DNA from: Candidatus Thorarchaeota archaeon SMTZ1-45
GTDB lineage: Archaea > Asgardarchaeota > Thorarchaeia > Thorarchaeales > Thorarchaeaceae
Assembly: GCA_001563335.1 (NCBI GenBank)
Contig: LRSL01000086.1
Coordinates: 1 to 64,000, forward strand
Reading direction: 5' to 3'
DNA: 64,000 nt
The translations under genes were made by a program, and so were the position numbers. Every line of letters starts with the position of its first letter. Position 1 is the first letter of the stretch. Of the stretch, positions 35,278 through 42,684 are shown one piece after another. A model generated the notes under the pieces. The model was not told where the DNA came from, made no database searches, and worked only from the letters and a program-made list of their open reading frames with translations.

Positions 35278-35386
35278 AGCCCATCAGTTTCCTCATTGCA
35301 TTATTCACAATTAGAGAATAAAAAAGAGGCTTCTGACGCAATTTTGACAGCCACTAATAAAAGGAGATGGCATCTTTAATCATATT

Positions 35387-36178
35387 ATGGCATACAATAT
35401 ACGACATCTGACAGATGATTTAGTTGACGATGTGGTTAATATTCTTGCTAAGAATTCATTATCAAACATCACGCTGATTGCTGATTGTACTCAACTTAGA
35501 GAGTGGTGTGATGTTCGAGTATTGATACACGATGACCAAATCAATGCGATTTTCTCATTCTACAGTGATTTGGATTTCTTGGCAACAGCGTTTTGGTGCA
35601 GAGATGTCGGATCACTGCAAAAATTAATGGCAGATTATTCAGAAGAATTGGGAAACAAAGAGTTCATTGCAATCTGCACAAAGGAGCAGCTAGACCAGTT
35701 CGAAAAAGTCTGCGTTGTTCTAAAACCAATCAGAGAAAGGCAAATGATTGCTGACAGAACCACAGAATTGCATTGCGAGTGTAAATCAACACCAATCAGA
35801 CTATCTATGAAAGATGCTGAGAAGCTCAAAGAATTGTATAGACTCAGTGGTACGCCAGCATGGACCCCTAATGCCATGACCTTGGGACCTTTCTACGGGG
35901 TTGTAGATGATGATGAAATGATATCAGTTGCTGGCATTCATTATGTTACTCCCTATGGAGCAGAGATAGGTAATATTGCCACACACCCTAATCACCGACG
36001 GAAGGGATTCGCAGCCGCTTGTATCAAGGCAGTTGTCGAAGAAGTTTTGGAGAATTCCGAATTGGCAATTCTCCATTATTTTGCTGATAATCTTCCAGCT
36101 CAGAATTTGTATGAGAGAATGGGATTTAGGTACTCAAAGGCTGATCCTGTGTACTTTGTTCGAGCTGCCTGCAAGTAA
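35387..36178 (+). CDS. GNAT acetyltransferase (FR47-like)
   Basis: EIGNIATHPNHRRKGFA, NLPAQNLYERMGF. Confidence 0.85.
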   Translation: MAYNIRHLTDDLVDDVVNILAKNSLSNITLIADCTQLREWCDVRVLIHDDQINAIFSFYSDLDFLATAFWCRDVGSLQKLMADYSEELGNKEFIAICTKEQLDQFEKVCVVLKPIRERQMIADRTTELHCECKSTPIRLSMKDAEKLKELYRLSGTPAWTPNAMTLGPFYGVVDDDEMISVAGIHYVTPYGAEIGNIATHPNHRRKGFAAACIKAVVEEVLENSELAILHYFADNLPAQNLYERMGFRYSKADPVYFVRAACK

Positions 36179-36330: not shown

Positions 36331-39300
36331 TTGAAAGTTGAGAAACGTGATAAGAGAATAGTGGAGTTCGATGATTCCAAGATTGAGGCGGCTATAACAA
36401 AGGCATTTGAATCGATCAATGCGGACACAGGTCCTGTACGTGGTCTAACAAAGGAAGTCGTTCAGATAATTCACGAGAAGGAAAGAGATGTCATCCATAT
36501 TGAGGAGATACAAGACATTGTTGAAGACACTCTGATGCTCAGAGGTTTCACAGAGATTGCTCGACGCTATATGAAATACCGAGAGAAGCACAATGAGGCT
36601 CGGAAGATACTCCAGATGATGGGAGTTGTTGATGACCTCAAGTTTGGGCCTAATGCAGCAACCGTCCTCTCGAGATATCTTCTGAAGGATGAGGAGGGAA
36701 ATCCAACAGAAACCCCATCACAGCTCTTTCGTAGAGTTTCAGGAGCTGTGGCGAGTATCGAAAAGAAGTATGACAAGAATGCTGATGTGAGGGAATATGA
36801 CGATCTCTTCTATTACATGATGGCAAACCTTGAGTTTCTACCAAACAGTCCGACTCTCTTCAATGCAGGTACAGAGATAGGCCAGTGCAGTGCCTGTTTT
36901 GTACTACCTATTGAGGACAACATGGACTCAATATTTACTTCACTCAAACATATGGCTGTGGTTCAGAAATCAGGCGGTGGTACGGGGTTCTCATTTTCAA
37001 GATTAAGACCAGTAGGATCAACCGTTGGAACCACTGGGGGAGTGGCTAGCGGTCCAATCTCTTTCATGAGAGTATACGACACTGCAACAGAGATCATCAA
37101 GCAGGGTGGACGTCGCAGAGGAGCAAATATGGCCATACTCAGATGCGATCATCCAGACATAATGGAATTTATAGCTTGTAAGTCCGATAAGCAGACCTTT
37201 AGAAATTTCAACATCTCGGTTGCATTAACGAGTGAGTTCATTAATGCCCTACAGGGTGACAAAGAAATCAACCTTGTTGCACCTCATAATGGCGTAAAAA
37301 TTCAGAGTATACGAGCAAGAGTGATTTTCGACGCGATTGTATATAATGCATGGAGTACAGGAGATCCAGGAATAGTCTTCATCGACCGTATTAATGATGA
37401 ACATCCACTAGGTGGCGAGCTGATAGAATCAACAAATCCATGCGTATCCGGAAATACTATAGTAAGTACAGATGTTGGTCTGTTGAGTATTCAAGATGTA
37501 CCTGGGGTGATAAAGACTGCAAAGAAACTTGTTTATTGTCTTAAGACCAAAGAGGGATACCAAGTCAAAGTCACAAATGATCATCGAATACTAACGACAA
37601 CAGGGTGGAAGCAAGCTGGAGATTTGAGTAAAGGTGATTTTATTTGCCTTCAGAGTACAGAAGGAGGATTTGGTAAAACAGGGAATCTTAGAATTGGTCA
37701 AATTCTTGGGTGGTATGTTGGTGATGGTTGGAATACAGGAACTGACCAACGTGCTACTCTTGCTTTCTATGGCGATGATAAAGGTAAGTTAGCTCAGTAC
37801 TTCTGTGATATTGTAAATGAGGAGCTTGAGTCCGACTTAGTGGTCATTAAAAGCAAGAATCGTGAGGAAGTTAGATCAAGAAGAATCTTGAATCTAGTTC
37901 AAGAGTGGGGGATGGAATCAAAGGAGATATCAAATCCAATTCTCTCTTCATCTGCTGATTGCCAAAGAGGTTTCCTACAAGGGTTATTCACTGCAGACGG
38001 TTCGATTCAGGGAAAGCCTGAGAAAGGAATCTCAGTGCGACTATCGCAAAGTAATCTGGACAGTCTTCGTAGTGTACAGATTATGTTGTTGAATTTCGGT
38101 ATTGCTTCGAAAATCTATGATAATCGTCGACGAGAACAAATGCGATTATTACCTGATAGTAAAGGGGAACCAAAACACTACAAGACTAAGGCAAATCATG
38201 AGCTTGTCATATCAAAGGAGAATATTGTGAAATTCCGTGATCAAATCGGTTTTCTGTTAGAGTACAAACAGAGTCGTTTAGTCAAAGGTCTTGATTCATT
38301 GAGTATCCGTGGGCCATATAAGGAGAATTTTCTGGCTCGGTTTGAATCACTCACACCTCAATTGGAGGAAGATGTCTTTGACATTGTTGGTACTCCACAT
38401 TGTGGATTTGTGGGGAATGGGATTGTTGTGCATAATTGTGGTGAACAACCCCTGATGCCCTATGAGTCATGCGTCTTGGGAAGCATCAACCTCTCACGAA
38501 TGGTCAAAGATGGAGAGATCGATTGGTCAAGACTTGAAGAGGTCGTAAAGCTCGCGGTTCGTTTTCTTGATAATATCATCGATTTAAACGTCTATCCAGT
38601 GCTTGAGATTGAACAGGTTACCAAAGCCAATAGGAAGATTGGTTTAGGCATCATGGGATTTGCTGAGCTTCTTATTAAATTGAGAAATCCCTATGACTCA
38701 GAGAAGGGACTAGAAAAAGCCGAAGAGGTGATGTCATTCATTCGACAAAAGGCTGAGAGAGCATCAAGCGAACTTGCAAAGATTAGAGGTAATTTCGAGA
38801 ACTTCGCACTCTTGAAAAAGCGTAATAGGTGGAAACGAAATGCATCTCTGATCACTGTTGCACCAACGGGCAGTATTAGTCTAATCGCACAAACAAGCAG
38901 TGGTATTGAACCATTATTTGCAATCGCTCACAGTCGTATGCTTGCTGAGGGAATCCATCTGAGTGAAGTGAGTCCGCTATTCGAGAGAGTTGCAGTGGAA
39001 AGAGGTTTCTGGAATGACGAAATAGAGCATGAAGTCGCAAGATCAGGTTCGGTTCAACAAATTGATGGAGTTCCAGATGATATAAAACAGGTCTTCAAGG
39101 CAGCACATGAGATAAGTCCAGAATGGCATGTTAGAATGCAGGCGGCTTTTCAGAAGCATACTGATAATGCTGTAAGTAAAACTGTTAATCTGCCAAACAG
39201 TGCCACGACTGAAGATGTTGAGCAAATATTTTTGCTAGCTAATCAGTTGGGACTCAAGGGTACAACTGTATTTAGAGATGGATGTCTAGGCGGAGTTCAG

Positions 39301-39336
39301 GTCTTGTATCCAGGATGTCAAAATTGCGATTCCTAG
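36331..39336 (+). CDS. nrdJ: class II (B12-dependent) ribonucleotide reductase with ATP cone and intein
   Basis: ATP cone (VEKRDKRIVEFD), PNSPTLFNAG, SACFV, GGGTG, RRGANM, NP|C...|CGEQ, RKIGLG, APTGSIS. Confidence 0.95.
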   Translation: MKVEKRDKRIVEFDDSKIEAAITKAFESINADTGPVRGLTKEVVQIIHEKERDVIHIEEIQDIVEDTLMLRGFTEIARRYMKYREKHNEARKILQMMGVVDDLKFGPNAATVLSRYLLKDEEGNPTETPSQLFRRVSGAVASIEKKYDKNADVREYDDLFYYMMANLEFLPNSPTLFNAGTEIGQCSACFVLPIEDNMDSIFTSLKHMAVVQKSGGGTGFSFSRLRPVGSTVGTTGGVASGPISFMRVYDTATEIIKQGGRRRGANMAILRCDHPDIMEFIACKSDKQTFRNFNISVALTSEFINALQGDKEINLVAPHNGVKIQSIRARVIFDAIVYNAWSTGDPGIVFIDRINDEHPLGGELIESTNPCVSGNTIVSTDVGLLSIQDVPGVIKTAKKLVYCLKTKEGYQVKVTNDHRILTTTGWKQAGDLSKGDFICLQSTEGGFGKTGNLRIGQILGWYVGDGWNTGTDQRATLAFYGDDKGKLAQYFCDIVNEELESDLVVIKSKNREEVRSRRILNLVQEWGMESKEISNPILSSSADCQRGFLQGLFTADGSIQGKPEKGISVRLSQSNLDSLRSVQIMLLNFGIASKIYDNRRREQMRLLPDSKGEPKHYKTKANHELVISKENIVKFRDQIGFLLEYKQSRLVKGLDSLSIRGPYKENFLARFESLTPQLEEDVFDIVGTPHCGFVGNGIVVHNCGEQPLMPYESCVLGSINLSRMVKDGEIDWSRLEEVVKLAVRFLDNIIDLNVYPVLEIEQVTKANRKIGLGIMGFAELLIKLRNPYDSEKGLEKAEEVMSFIRQKAERASSELAKIRGNFENFALLKKRNRWKRNASLITVAPTGSISLIAQTSSGIEPLFAIAHSRMLAEGIHLSEVSPLFERVAVERGFWNDEIEHEVARSGSVQQIDGVPDDIKQVFKAAHEISPEWHVRMQAAFQKHTDNAVSKTVNLPNSATTEDVEQIFLLANQLGLKGTTVFRDGCLGGVQVLYPGCQNCDS
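37441..38436 (+). mobile_element. intein with LAGLIDADG homing endonuclease (332 aa)
   Basis: Starts CVSGNT, has block B VTNDHRIL, LGWYVGDG and FLQGLFTADG, and ends VVHN|C; inserted immediately before the catalytic Cys of NPCGE. Confidence 0.95.
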
Positions 39337-39346
39337 AGACCATTGC

Positions 39347-40186
39347 TCAGGTGGACCGCTTGGCTTCTTCATCAATGATGGAACGTCTAGTATTGATCAG
39401 CTTGTTATATGTGCTTTTGAGAGCTTTTTCAGCGTCAAAGAACCATAGTTGTTTTGCTAACAACCATTTGGTCTTTGATTCTCGAAAGCTACGTGACAGT
39501 TGTGTATAGTTCGTCTTCAGCTGTCCGATTACTACTGTAGAGTCCTTGCACCGATCACGAAGAGATCGGATCTTTTCCTCTAATGGAGCTAAGTCCTTAG
39601 CGAGTGTTCGCTCAACAGCATCTCTGATATGGCTGTTTCCGTTCAGGTTGATAATCCTGATACGAGACCAGCGCAACGTATTTCCTCCATTTTCACGAAC
39701 GAGTCTACTAAACTCGCTAGAGTCGATCAATACTCGTTCATTTTCAGAACCTAGAATTCTTCTTCGTTCTCTTGACCTGAGTAGTGGGAAGAGAATCACA
39801 CCTGGCCTGAGGCGGACCCCAGGAGTTTTCCTTATTAGTCTCTCAACGTATTTTTTCTGTTGTGCAGTTGGATTACTAAAACTGAATGAAACAATCGAAT
39901 AGACGCGATTTTCATATGATTCCTCCAGCTTCATTCGGGCTGTCGGTATCTTTCGAGTTTTAATGAATGATGTAACAGGTTGATTTTGAAGAATTGTGTC
40001 ATGAAGTTCGGAATATCCATGAACAATAAACACACCTTTCCGGATTCGTTGAACACCTTCTACTGCCGAGAGTTTCCTAGACACACCTTTAGTTCCGTCA
40101 GGAGAACCTAATAGAATGATTAATCGAGAATCACCTTTCAATTCGGAGGCATCTGGGAGGATGCCTTCTACACTGGCTTCGGTCAT
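39347..40186 (-). CDS. basic hypothetical protein with PaaX/Cas2-like segments
   Basis: YSIVSFSFSNP...VERLIRKTPGVRLRPGVILFP and a related N-terminal GVQRIRKGVFIV; helical C-terminus. Confidence 0.6.
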   Translation of the reverse strand: MTEASVEGILPDASELKGDSRLIILLGSPDGTKGVSRKLSAVEGVQRIRKGVFIVHGYSELHDTILQNQPVTSFIKTRKIPTARMKLEESYENRVYSIVSFSFSNPTAQQKKYVERLIRKTPGVRLRPGVILFPLLRSRERRRILGSENERVLIDSSEFSRLVRENGGNTLRWSRIRIINLNGNSHIRDAVERTLAKDLAPLEEKIRSLRDRCKDSTVVIGQLKTNYTQLSRSFRESKTKWLLAKQLWFFDAEKALKSTYNKLINTRRSIIDEEAKRST

Positions 40187-40451
40187 TTTCTATAGCACAT
40201 TTGTCCTTCAAACAACAGCAAAAGGTATTCAAAGGTCATTGGTGACACATTTGAGCGACTGCAATAATCGTTAATATCTTTGTCTGGCATGTTTAAATAC
40301 TTGTATTTTAGTAAATATTTTTGATAACCTTATAAATGAAATTTAGGACTTTCATAGTAATTTTTTTCAATTTTAAGGGATAAGAAAATGAGTTTCTGTA
40401 ACTAGAATAACTTTACTCTTTATTCGACACACATTGTTTGAGGTGACATCT

Positions 40452-40532
40452 ATGCACTTCGATGATGAAGATCTTTGGGATAGTGATGACGACTTCGACG
40501 ATGACTGGGAAGACGACGACGACGACTGGTAG
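40452..40532 (+). CDS. 26-aa acidic peptide MHFDDEDLWDSDDDFDDDWEDDDDDW
   Basis: GAGGTGA RBS 5 nt upstream; 17 of 26 residues D/E; read manually. Confidence 0.7.
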   Translation: MHFDDEDLWDSDDDFDDDWEDDDDDW

Positions 40533-40604
40533 GTCGAGGTTGGTTAGTCGGTCTCGATAGAACTCTTCCGGTCCAATCTTATCCCAGACTTGGACGTGAA
40601 TGCT

Positions 40605-40670
40605 ATGGCTAAAAAGAAACCAGCAGCAAAAAAATCGACCAAAACTGAAACTAAGAAAAAGAAGAAGTAA
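40605..40670 (+). CDS. 21-aa basic peptide MAKKKPAAKKSTKTETKKKKK
   Basis: GGACGTGA RBS-like site; 11 of 21 residues Lys; followed by a hairpin and T-tract. Confidence 0.65.
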   Translation: MAKKKPAAKKSTKTETKKKKK

Positions 40671-40681
40671 CAATATAGGAC

Positions 40682-40721
40682 CGGGAGAAGTCTATCAGAC
40701 TTCCCCGTTCTTCCTTTTTTT
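40682..40721 (+). terminator. hairpin plus T-tract
   Basis: CGGGaGAAGTCT-atc-AGACTTCCCCG followed by TTCTTCCTTTTTTT. Confidence 0.7.
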
Positions 40722-40728
40722 ACATCGT

Positions 40729-42684
40729 TTATTTTGCGTGTTTAATTTCTTCAACAGATTCTGGGTTCACTAGGGATGAGGTATCACCCGGATCTTCTCC
40801 CAAATAGGCAGCTCGGATCATTCTCCGCATCACTTTGGCGTTTCTTGTTTTAGGTAGATCAGAAACAAAAAGAACATCACGAGGAGTAAGTGGTTTACCC
40901 ATTGCTATAGCCACAGATTGCTTGAGCTCCTCTCTTAGTTTCTCAGATGGTTCAACTCCAGGATTAAGGACACAAAATACAACAAGTTCATTGAGCTTGA
41001 TTTTGTGCGGCACGCCTATCGTTGCAGCCTCAGCTACAGCAGGATTACTCACAAGAACTGACTCAGCCTCTGCAGGTCCAAAGCGCTTGCCTGCCACTTT
41101 GATGATATCATCAGACCTACCAAGAATATACCAAAGTCCATCTGAGTCAATCGCGGCAAAGTCCCCATGGACCCAAGTATTTTTCCAACGAGACCAGTAT
41201 GTGTTTTCATATCTCTCGGGATTCTTCCAAAATCCACGGGTCATTCCTATCCAGGGTGATTTGATAACGAGTTCTCCAACTTTATTTCGTACAGGAGTTC
41301 CATCCTCATCAAACACGTCTGCGGCAATTCCAGGACAAGGTCCAGAAAATGCACAAGCCTTCAAGGGCAATAGAGGGTTTCCCATCACAATACCACCTGA
41401 GATTTCTGTGCCACCAGAATAGTTGATTATTGGTATTCTCTTCATCCCTACTTTCTCGAAAAGCCACATCCAAGGATCGGGATTCCATGGTTCGCCAGTG
41501 GAGCCAAAGTAACGAAGTGAAGAGAGATTGTGCGGCTTAATTGGGTCTTCTCCATGGGTCATCAACAATCGAATCAGTGTTGGGGATACTCCAAGTATCG
41601 AAACCTTATGTTTCTCAACAATCTCCCAAAGGCGTCCAGGATGCGGGTAGTCAGGAGCACCATCATAAAGGAAAAAGGTCCCTCCCAGAATCAAAGCCCC
41701 AAATACCAGCCAAGGCCCCATCATCCACCCCATGTCAGTCATCCAGTAAATCAGCTCACCAGGGTGCAAGTCTGTTCCAAAAGCCATGTCTTGAGCTGAT
41801 TTAATTGGAAATCCACAATGGGTGTGTACTGCTCCTTTTGCCAGTCCCGTAGTGCCAGAGGTGTAGATAATCATCATAGGCGATTCTGCATCTGTTATCT
41901 CTGTACTAGCTGAATCAGATTGGTCAGAAATGAGGTCGTGCCACCAATAGTCTCGCTTAGGCTTCATTTCAATTGATACTTCAGTCAGATTCAGAACAAT
42001 CATATGTTCCAATGAGGATATCTTTTCAGCAGCCTCATCTGCGATTGGTTTCATGGGAATAGTCTTGCCTCTGCGGATAGCCCCATCAACTGTGAAAATT
42101 GCTTTGGCATCAGCATCACCCAATCGGTCGACAATTGCATTAACTCCAAATCCTGAGAATAGTGGGAGGATTATGCCGCCAATTTTAGCTATTGCTAGTA
42201 GCGCAACTGTAATCTCAGGAATCATTGGCATGTAAATTCCAATTGAATCGCCTAATCCAAGTCCAAGTTCGCGGAGTGCATTTGCTGTCTTATTCACCTC
42301 TCGATACAAATCACCATATGTCATTGAACGAGTTGCACCATCTTCGCCCTCCCATATCAGTGCAAGTTGTGTTTCAGTATTTGTGCCCATGTATTTATCT
42401 ATGCAATTGTGAATAATGTTCAGCTTCCCATTGACACACCAACGTGGCCATGCAATACCATTTGAGAGATCCACAACTTGGTCATAAGGTTCATAGAACT
42501 CAATATTAAGAAACTTCAGAAGTGCGTCTGTAAACCATGCCACATCCTCTGTCGAACGTTGCATGAGTTCATCAAAGTCTTCTATTTCATGCAACTTCAT
42601 GAATCTCGTGAGGTTGGCCTTTTCTACATGTTCCGATGTAGGTCGCCAGACGATCTCGCCTCCAAACTCAAAGGTCTCTTTCAA
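40729..42684 (-). CDS. acs: AMP-forming acyl/acetyl-CoA synthetase
   Basis: YTSGTTGLAKG, STGEPWN, HGDFA, GRSDD, LPKTRNAKVMRR. Confidence 0.9.
   Translation of the reverse strand: MKETFEFGGEIVWRPTSEHVEKANLTRFMKLHEIEDFDELMQRSTEDVAWFTDALLKFLNIEFYEPYDQVVDLSNGIAWPRWCVNGKLNIIHNCIDKYMGTNTETQLALIWEGEDGATRSMTYGDLYREVNKTANALRELGLGLGDSIGIYMPMIPEITVALLAIAKIGGIILPLFSGFGVNAIVDRLGDADAKAIFTVDGAIRRGKTIPMKPIADEAAEKISSLEHMIVLNLTEVSIEMKPKRDYWWHDLISDQSDSASTEITDAESPMMIIYTSGTTGLAKGAVHTHCGFPIKSAQDMAFGTDLHPGELIYWMTDMGWMMGPWLVFGALILGGTFFLYDGAPDYPHPGRLWEIVEKHKVSILGVSPTLIRLLMTHGEDPIKPHNLSSLRYFGSTGEPWNPDPWMWLFEKVGMKRIPIINYSGGTEISGGIVMGNPLLPLKACAFSGPCPGIAADVFDEDGTPVRNKVGELVIKSPWIGMTRGFWKNPERYENTYWSRWKNTWVHGDFAAIDSDGLWYILGRSDDIIKVAGKRFGPAEAESVLVSNPAVAEAATIGVPHKIKLNELVVFCVLNPGVEPSEKLREELKQSVAIAMGKPLTPRDVLFVSDLPKTRNAKVMRRMIRAAYLGEDPGDTSSLVNPESVEEIKHAK

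Follow-up and report, generated by a model that had tools for sequence, protein, structure and literature searches.

Organization of the Locus

The window analysed here is the whole 64,000-nucleotide (nt) stretch of Candidatus Thorarchaeota archaeon SMTZ1-45 (contig LRSL01000086.1, positions 1 to 64,000), and the genes in question lie in and beside a 542-nt gap between two of its minus-strand genes. One of these encodes a strongly basic protein of 279 amino acids (aa), which we call p279, and the other resembles an AMP-forming acetyl-CoA synthetase (acs-like). The plus strand of the gap carries two micro-open reading frames (micro-ORFs) of extreme and opposite composition, an acidic one (ORF1) followed by a Lys-rich one (ORF2), together with a ribosome-binding site, a spacer repeat and a terminator, all of which are present where a preliminary description of this DNA had placed them (Table 1). 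In the acidic peptide, the runs of Asp and Glu are punctuated by aromatic residues at F3, W9, F15, W19 and W26, the last being the C-terminal residue. The two peptides have a constant third partner, the basic 279-aa protein next door, which had been overlooked. Comparison with related genomes makes it highly probable that the micro-ORFs are real coding genes and belong to a real module.

Table 1. Features of the micro-ORF locus and its flanking genes in the window.
Feature	Position	Strand	Remarks
Anchor gene p279	39347..40186	-	279 aa, isoelectric point (pI) 10.3, net charge +21; divergent from the micro-ORFs
Upstream element TAGAATAACTTTACTC (consensus TAGACATnTTTTACTC)	40403..40418	+	putative B recognition element (BRE)/TATA; TTTAC core begins 40 nt 5′ of the ATG
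Antisense ORF, 86 aa	40413..40673	-	from the ORF track
Shine-Dalgarno-type site GAGGTGA	40440-40446	+	5 nt ahead of the ORF1 ATG (40452)
ORF1, acidic micropeptide MHFDDEDLWDSDDDFDDDWEDDDDDW	40452..40532	+	26 aa, 15 Asp and 2 Glu, net charge -17
Spacer, 72 nt	40533..40604	+	inverted repeat GTCCAA 40571-40576 / TTGGAC 40590-40595
Weak ORF2 ribosome-binding site (GGACGTGA)	within spacer 40533..40604	+	from sequence
ORF2, Lys-rich micropeptide MAKKKPAAKKSTKTETKKKKK	40605..40670	+	21 aa, 12 Lys, net charge +10
Terminator hairpin and T7 run	40677-40712; T7 40715-40721	either	shared with the convergent acs-like gene
AMP-forming acetyl-CoA-synthetase-like (acs-like) gene	40729..42684	-	Pfam AMP-binding 2.1e-71, ACAS_N 4.6e-11; convergent; outside the module

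Coding Potential of the Micro-ORFs

Among the 32,902 ATG-started ORFs of 15-60 aa in the scanned genome (G000; 3.54 Mb, 42% G+C, 119 contigs), a single one consists of at least 50% Asp/Glu, and this is ORF1, while three consist of at least 50% Lys/Arg, ORF2 being one of them. The acidic/basic neighbour pair is not a chance pairing. The gap that holds the pair is 69-78% identical across 12 genomes of the same genus. ORF1 was intact in all of the first seven relatives and ORF2 in six of them, and ORF1 is intact in every relative examined, including all 23 aligned copies, in which the acidic peptide ranges from 23 to 32 aa through whole-codon differences only. The ORF2 orthologues of the genus, 19-21 aa long, also change length by whole codons. 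When 13 sequences are aligned as DNA, the Asp and Glu codons keep an invariant GA with T and C alternating at the third position, and the variable columns at the first, second and third codon positions amount to 8/23, 6/23 and 18/23 for ORF1 and 8/19, 5/19 and 11/19 for ORF2. Variation in the surrounding non-coding DNA is far above that of the coding parts (62/83 columns upstream, 45/62 in the spacer and 61/66 past ORF2). From these patterns of substitution, both ORFs are very probably protein-coding.

The expression signals are conserved as well. GAGGTGA is invariant in all 13 sequences of the genus. Of the 36 Thorarchaeota loci with an acidic ORF, 33 have GAGGTG or AGGTG in the 16 nt ahead of the start that was chosen. 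The TTTAC core is invariant in the same 13-sequence alignment, and the TAGAATAACTTTACTC element around it, which we infer to be a promoter, can also be recognized at the majority of the more distant loci inspected. The terminator stem differs in sequence among relatives with its pairing kept (alignment columns 339-372), and in the window it folds at -18.6 kcal/mol on the plus strand (z -4.2; 0 of 200 shuffles as stable) and at -18.5 kcal/mol on the minus strand (z -3.1). A pattern scan returned no sigma-70 promoter and no intrinsic terminator, the terminator pattern requiring a loop of 3-8 and a T-run no more than 2 nt from the stem. On the minus strand, the complement of the Lys codons (40605-40670) forms a T-rich tract past the hairpin of the acs-like gene and could aid its termination; ORF2 is retained where the acs-like gene is not adjacent.

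The ORF track of the window records the antisense ORF over this interval, which had been read as a mere shadow of the micro-ORFs, and that reading holds: in relatives the open frame measures anything from 51 to 124 aa, and its extent is not conserved. The antisense ORF is a by-product because the complement of GAY and AAR codons contains no stops.

Two other proposals of the preliminary description fared less well. The inverted repeat of the spacer had been taken for a hairpin overlapping the ribosome-binding site of ORF2. The spacer as a whole folds at -20.3 kcal/mol, which is unexceptional for its composition (z -0.36; 69 of 200 shuffles as stable), and an alignment fold of 11 genus-mates gave 12 pairs with no compensatory change; we rejected the hairpin as a regulatory structure. 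Six more distant loci share no consensus spacer structure, and in distant loci the spacer is not conserved and GGAGA precedes ORF2 instead. Likewise, ORF2 had been likened to the tail of histone H1. Its KKPAKK motif occurs only in the closest relatives, and KKPAKKAKPA was found nowhere else; outside the closest relatives the Lys-rich orthologues read MAKKKSGKKSKK..., MGKKKGKAKQKGK..., MAKKKSGKK..., MGKKKGKAKQ... or MPKKKKTGAKK.... Judged by these orthologues, the Lys-rich peptide is better called a generic polycation.

Linkage of the Acidic ORF to p279 in Thorarchaeota

In tblastn searches with the neighbouring proteins, each of the compared loci with the pair proved to have p279 beside it, transcribed divergently from the acidic ORF. 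The acs-like gene is absent beside the module in two genomes (G004 and G013). We extended this comparison with an alignment of p279, which was used to scan species-representative genomes and gave 41 loci, labelled Thorarchaeota, Promethearchaeota or uncultured archaeon with a single exception, labelled Hermodarchaeota. Acidic ORFs were sought at these loci by a composition scan of the upstream DNA, with acidic and basic thresholds that are arbitrary. An acidic micro-ORF lies on the opposite strand upstream of p279 in 36 of the 41 loci, and this linkage persists over a range of p279 identities from 83% down to 31%. The distance from the acidic ORF to the start of the p279 match is 162-404 nt, or 226-404 nt leaving aside one locus with a doubtful start (L088). 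The acidic ORF starts with ATG in 33 loci, GTG in two and TTG in one; in L086 and L088 the scan chose a far-upstream ATG, and the true start is uncertain.

Of the five loci without an acidic call, L056, L067 and L083 hold just 0-18 nt upstream of p279, L087 holds 346 nt, and L092 has masked bases at the expected site, next to which a fragment ending ...EDDDDSDW-stop is visible. Masked bases, which are read as X, coincide with the expected acidic ORF in L109 as well as in L092. Low-complexity masking may hide such genes in public records.

The preliminary description had staked its case on conserved pairing in related genomes, and the pairing is there: of the 34 Thorarchaeota loci that have both the acidic ORF and downstream sequence, 22 carry a Lys-rich ORF after it, and a 23rd, more diverged copy in L071 falls below the threshold. 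The Lys-rich ORF is absent from the most divergent clade (L085, L086, L088-L091, L093 and L095), where a hairpin and T-run stand directly 3′ of the acidic ORF. In three further lineages (G010/L055, G005/L057 and G003/L069) it has decayed to remnants beside an intact acidic ORF. Such remnants, startless and ending for example in ...ETPSKKKKT-stop or ...KKGKK-stop, are seen in L002 (G010), L010 (G005), L016 (G003), L117 and L119. The Lys-rich ORF has decayed independently in several lineages and is dispensable. The loci from the different searches overlap in genomes, so the counts given here are not independent samples.

Distribution and Gene Order Across the Asgard Phylum

A search of 1.84 billion representative proteins with a p279 profile gave 74 matches at E ≤ 0.001 and 31 at E ≤ 1e-30. 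The matches are 86-295 aa long, and there are therefore no fused forms among them. A second profile, built from 13 distant p279 hits, was searched in 251 genomes of the phylum and found a p279-like gene in 71 of them, with one match each in 65 of the 71. The gene is present in 41/59 genomes of the window's own family (f1), 17/19 of f12, 3/3 of f13, 2/3 of f31, 3/5 of f32 and 1/4 of f15, and in the one genome each of f6, f8 and f10. It was found in none of the 54 genomes of f9, the 26 of f5, the 16 of f18 and the 10 of f14.

The 30 loci of this wider search have an acidic aromatic micro-ORF in 24 cases (25 with L113, at a lower threshold), a Lys-rich ORF in 18 and both in 15 (16 with L113); the sequences of L114 and L116 stop short of the site of the acidic ORF. 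In four families besides that of the window (f12, f13, f31 and f32) the acidic ORF flanks the p279 homologue, and three of these also have the Lys-rich ORF, so that the opposite-charge pairing first described in the window recurs in three other families, in some of them with the basic ORF ahead of the acidic one. The gene order differs between families. In f12 (for example L115), the p279-like gene, a basic ORF (MAKKKSGKK...KKGKK, 21-26 aa) and an acidic ORF (M.PY.YGPEDDEEE.WE..EEDW, 25-34 aa) follow one another on one strand, co-oriented with gene spacings of 140-220 nt. The order in f31 is like that of the window, acidic then basic and divergent from the p279-like gene; f32 has the p279-like gene followed by two acidic ORFs and a basic one; and f13 has a divergent, Glu-rich acidic ORF and no basic ORF. 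The basic ORF of L117 and L119 is reduced to a remnant. The acidic peptide, its Asp/Glu runs interrupted by Trp, Phe or Tyr, usually ends in -DW or -DF in f1, f12, f32 and one of the two f31 loci.

Adjacency is thus maintained despite rearrangement, and therefore the products probably work together. The sequences point to a three-part module, made up of the basic protein and two peptides, one polyanionic and one polycationic; of the two peptides, the acidic one is constant and the basic one is often lost. From the same genomes, the module appears to be widespread in part of the Asgard phylum. A short motif, [DE]3-D-W-stop, gives a similar picture, occurring in 46/59 f1 and 16/19 f12 genomes, and in 8/54 (f9), 2/26 (f5) and 3/16 (f18) genomes of families where the p279-like gene was not found. 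This co-occurrence is consistent with the linkage and is no test of it, related genomes being non-independent.

One f12 locus has a 22-aa ORF, MRKKWKKKRARKIRRKRRKKQK (L115:3466-3534, plus strand), some 700 nt downstream of its module, and we take this ORF to resemble eL41.

Acidic Paralogues and Search Sensitivity

Seven genus-mates (L018-L025, L043-L054) carry a second, unpaired acidic paralogue of the MHFDDDDLWEEEDWDDDEWDDNDDDW type, 4-8 kb from the module. This copy lies either about 165 nt upstream of a GNAT gene, the homologue of window 35387..36178, or convergent with a 494-aa neighbour, and the window has no MHFDDDDLWEEEDWDDDEWDDNDDDW-like paralogue at the corresponding site (35278-35386). 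In L085, the p279-linked acidic copy itself also precedes the GNAT gene. Unpaired acidic paralogues are also found as monocistronic genes, with a hairpin and T-run directly 3′.

Composition this biased makes profile searches unreliable. A hidden Markov model (HMM) of 23 acidic peptides gave eight hits in 400 genomes and missed G000, and it proved too insensitive at this composition; it was replaced by DNA patterns and the synteny-anchored scan. The pattern M-H-F-[DE]4 matched 15 of the 400 genomes, all of the window's genus, with one hit in the reversed control. This suggested a genus-restricted gene, an idea we rejected when the synteny scan showed that the N-terminus merely varies. Five of the peptides, searched against Pfam and NCBIfam at E ≤ 10, matched no family.

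Other acidic/aromatic tracts in G000 amount to 12 frames, two of which were tried in Pfam; they matched no family, and the tracts gave no functional lead. One contig of that genome (C118) encodes a 115-aa Cys-rich, zinc-ribbon-like protein with an acidic/aromatic tail ending ...DDDDEW (L096:268-612, plus strand), and this protein has no Pfam family. Two further [DE]3-D-W-stop matches in G000 lie on contigs C21 and C33; the one on C33 was set aside, not being an acidic micro-ORF.

Further out in the window, a ribonucleotide reductase gene (36331..39336, plus strand; Pfam Ribonuc_red_lgC 2.3e-128) is interrupted by an intein with a LAGLIDADG domain (LAGLIDADG_3 6.4e-22, Intein_splicing 1.6e-12).

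The p279 Protein

By sequence, p279 matched no Pfam family at E 0.001 and no NCBIfam family, and it had no significant match in the PDB; for 30 members of its family searched at E ≤ 1, PaaX and ChrB were absent among the families listed (25 of 38). An AlphaFold2 model (predicted local distance difference test (pLDDT) 87; predicted template-modelling score (pTM) 0.82) predicts two strand-helix-strand-strand-helix-strand domains (residues 21-76 and 96-178) followed by a three-helix bundle (residues 183-278). Residues 21-76 are not modelled as a winged helix, unlike the N-terminus of PaaX.

Structure searches with this model gave weak matches. The best Foldseek match is PaaX (8a39), with E 8.4e-4 and a template-modelling (TM) score of only 0.27, and the PaaX-like Rv0674 is also listed; weak matches include the tandem-RRM proteins 1b7f, 4egl and 2dhs, at a probability of 0.16-0.47. 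An Atlas structure search placed residues 77-279 onto ChrB_N clusters (TM 0.51 by query, 0.71 by row), the ChrB_N rows having TM 0.43-0.53 by query and 10-19% of their cluster members also having PaaX_M. VIA-align gave mainly generic three-helix bundles with Z ≤ 12, within the range of common arrangements, as are the cytosolic domain of CorA (Z 9.4-9.7) and Cas2 sso1404 against residues 18-105 (Z 6.2); PaaX was not among the top 50 of the second look. The predicted fold of residues 77-279 may be shared with PaaX and ChrB_N, from both of which p279 differs in lacking a Pfam match by sequence and in its beta-alpha-beta-beta-alpha-beta N-terminus. We describe p279 as a basic protein with a putative ChrB_N/PaaX-like fold and do not assign it to either family. 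Strong basicity is a feature of the whole family: all 30 members have a pI of 10.2-11.25 and a net charge of +18 to +35, and the invariant columns include the arginines R116, R125, R127 and R172.

Proposed Function and Alternatives

The acidic ORF is found divergent from the p279-like gene on its upstream side, in the same orientation on its downstream side, or as a monocistronic gene, and on this ground the products of the three genes are proposed to act in trans. The acidic peptide would be a disordered polyanion that binds, by electrostatics, the polycationic surfaces of p279 and of the Lys-rich peptide, with its Trp residues, the C-terminal Trp foremost, serving as hydrophobic anchors. Binding of this kind would set the peptide in competition with nucleic acid or another polyanion, and it could serve as an inbuilt chaperone, buffer or switch, keeping in check proteins that adhere to DNA or RNA if left alone. 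The charges agree with such a mechanism, the p279 family at +18 to +35 and the Lys-rich peptide at +10 facing an acidic peptide of -17. The aromatic positions of the acidic peptide are conserved, and in most lineages it has a C-terminal Trp. Prothymosin-alpha and H1 offer a precedent for highly charged, disordered partners that can bind tightly without folding (PMC7661507). We put this mechanism forward tentatively, with the balance leaning slightly against it.

Several observations weigh against a mechanism of this kind. The Lys-rich ORF has been lost several times, so the acidic/basic peptide pair is not obligatory, and the fold matches of p279 are weak. The acidic ORF of f13 is Glu-rich with few or no Trp residues, and the idea of Trp anchors is therefore not universal. 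No acidic ORF was found within the DNA examined in L101 (f10), L104 (f15) and L124 (f8). N-terminal Asp/Glu runs are reported to abort translation in bacteria and eukaryotes (PMC9718836), and the peptide may therefore be poorly made, or the translational abort may itself be the function. A structure prediction of a p279 orthologue with the 32-aa acidic peptide of L064 returned a score of 0.00 and no verdict, and it is not evidence either way. A more specific form of the proposal would make the 23-55-aa Asp/Glu/Trp peptide a free-standing polyanionic chaperone or competitor for both an H1-tail- or protamine-like peptide and a basic nucleic-acid-binding protein, the three tuning chromatin or ribonucleoprotein (RNP) compaction, possibly by complex coacervation; in this full form it is unlikely to be right.

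The main rival moves the function from the peptides, which would have none, to the act of translating them. The Asp/Glu-rich ORF would be hard to translate, as would the poly-Lys ORF, whose codons are A-rich, and ribosome destabilization or stalling on them would report Mg2+, polyamine or ribosome status and set expression of a downstream cistron. The Asp/Glu run of ORF1 begins at codon 4, and in this it resembles the acidic nascent-peptide sensors, whose Asp/Glu runs come directly after the start; PMC9718836 describes Mg2+-dependent abortion at N-terminal Asp/Glu in E. coli, yeast and a human reconstituted system, and names consecutive Lys or Trp as pausing sequences. A leader of this kind is expected upstream of its target and co-transcribed with it. 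Only the unpaired paralogue about 165 nt upstream of a same-strand GNAT gene has this arrangement, and in L085 the p279-linked copy also precedes that GNAT gene. In the window and at most loci no same-strand gene follows the pair, which runs into a terminator and then a convergent gene, and no downstream gene stands out as a consistent target of regulation. Monocistronic acidic copies have their own hairpin and T-run, the ORFs of f12 stand downstream of the p279-like gene, and the aromatic positions and C-terminal Trp are conserved, although a simple Asp/Glu-driven abortion has no need of them. A cis-acting sensor fails to account for the copies that have no gene behind them and for those lying behind the partner gene, and we consider it unlikely.

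Another possibility is that p279 is the nucleic-acid-binding core of an RNA-protein or chromatin complex, for instance one associated with the ribosome or the nucleoid, in which the peptides would be small subunits or cofactors with fixed structural places and the acidic one would not be a competitor. The strong basicity of p279, the tandem-RRM proteins among its weak Foldseek matches, the strong ribosome-binding sites, the conserved promoter-like element and the presumed eL41-like ORF near one f12 module would all suit such an assembly. The fold matches are weak, however, the Lys-rich ORF is dispensable, and the lack of any match to the p279-like gene in the genomes of f9 (0/54), f5 (0/26) and f18 (0/16) would be unusual for a core component. 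An assembly of this kind seems improbable.

A toxin/antidote or other defence-type module had been among the functions first suggested for the pair. Either p279 or the Lys-rich peptide would be harmful when free, and the acidic peptide would be its labile neutralizer. Complementary charges and tight linkage are what such a module would show, and the acidic, probably disordered small partner beside a basic-protein gene recalls type II toxin-antitoxin systems; the N-terminal domain of p279 also aligns with Cas2 sso1404, though at a Z of 6.2 that is within the range of common arrangements. The genetics fit poorly. A single copy is the rule (65 of 71 genomes), and the gene follows family lines by vertical, syntenic inheritance, not patchily, and keeps company with housekeeping genes (ribonucleotide reductase, acs). 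Instead of an overlapping operon, the f1 genes are divergent and 162-404 nt apart, and the co-oriented genes of f12 are still separated by 140-220 nt. We regard a toxin/antidote function as decidedly improbable.

The micro-ORFs might not be genes at all, having arisen incidentally from a non-coding RNA or from the convergent gene's T-rich terminator when read antisense, but this is hardly credible. The complement of the Lys codons is indeed T-rich just past the acs-like stop, and antisense frames are open for 51-124 aa in relatives. Against this, the antisense ORF has no conserved extent, variation follows codon positions with in-frame indels, the two micro-ORFs are retained at loci without an adjacent acs and under shuffled gene order, and an Rfam scan of 39900-41000 gave CrcZ as its sole match, with 17 bits where the gathering score is 95.

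Comparison With Known Systems

If the acidic peptide is a polyanionic competitor acting on p279 and on the Lys-rich peptide, its nearest counterpart in principle is the pair formed by prothymosin-alpha and H1. Both systems join an acidic, low-complexity partner to a Lys-rich one with large opposite charges, -17 and +10 here. Prothymosin-alpha and H1 are about 110 and 200 aa long, as against 26 and 21 aa for the peptides of the window. They are also not co-encoded and have neither regularly spaced Trp residues nor a C-terminal Trp, whereas the micropeptides match no sequence family and have a folded basic protein, p279, as their constant partner. A second likeness is to bacterial SSB and to gp2.5 and gp4 of phage T7, whose acidic C-terminal tails end in an aromatic residue and dock into basic pockets. 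The acidic run and terminal aromatic residue are the same, as -DW or -DF in most families here, but those tails belong to larger folded proteins, and the micropeptide is a free-standing gene product.

A limited literature search found no published description of such peptides or of the module. To our knowledge, there is no described system of separately encoded polyanion and polycation micropeptides locked to a ChrB_N/PaaX-like basic protein.

Significance

Microproteins below 30 aa are almost never annotated. The two described here, both extreme in composition, are shared by several Asgard families and stay tied to a single partner gene, which gives three new families and a hypothesis that can be tested by peptide chemistry. 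The acidic ORF is in addition an extreme natural test of the rule that N-terminal Asp/Glu runs translate poorly. Asgard archaea are the closest known relatives of eukaryotes, and eukaryotic nuclei depend on acidic disordered tracts that chaperone Lys-rich basic proteins. Should the acidic peptide prove to be a free-standing chaperone, no smaller polyelectrolyte pair encoded in a genome would be known, and the acidic tracts of eukaryotic histone chaperones might have had a forerunner in this one. A minimal, separately encoded version of this kind would make the origin of the eukaryotic acidic-chaperone logic testable.

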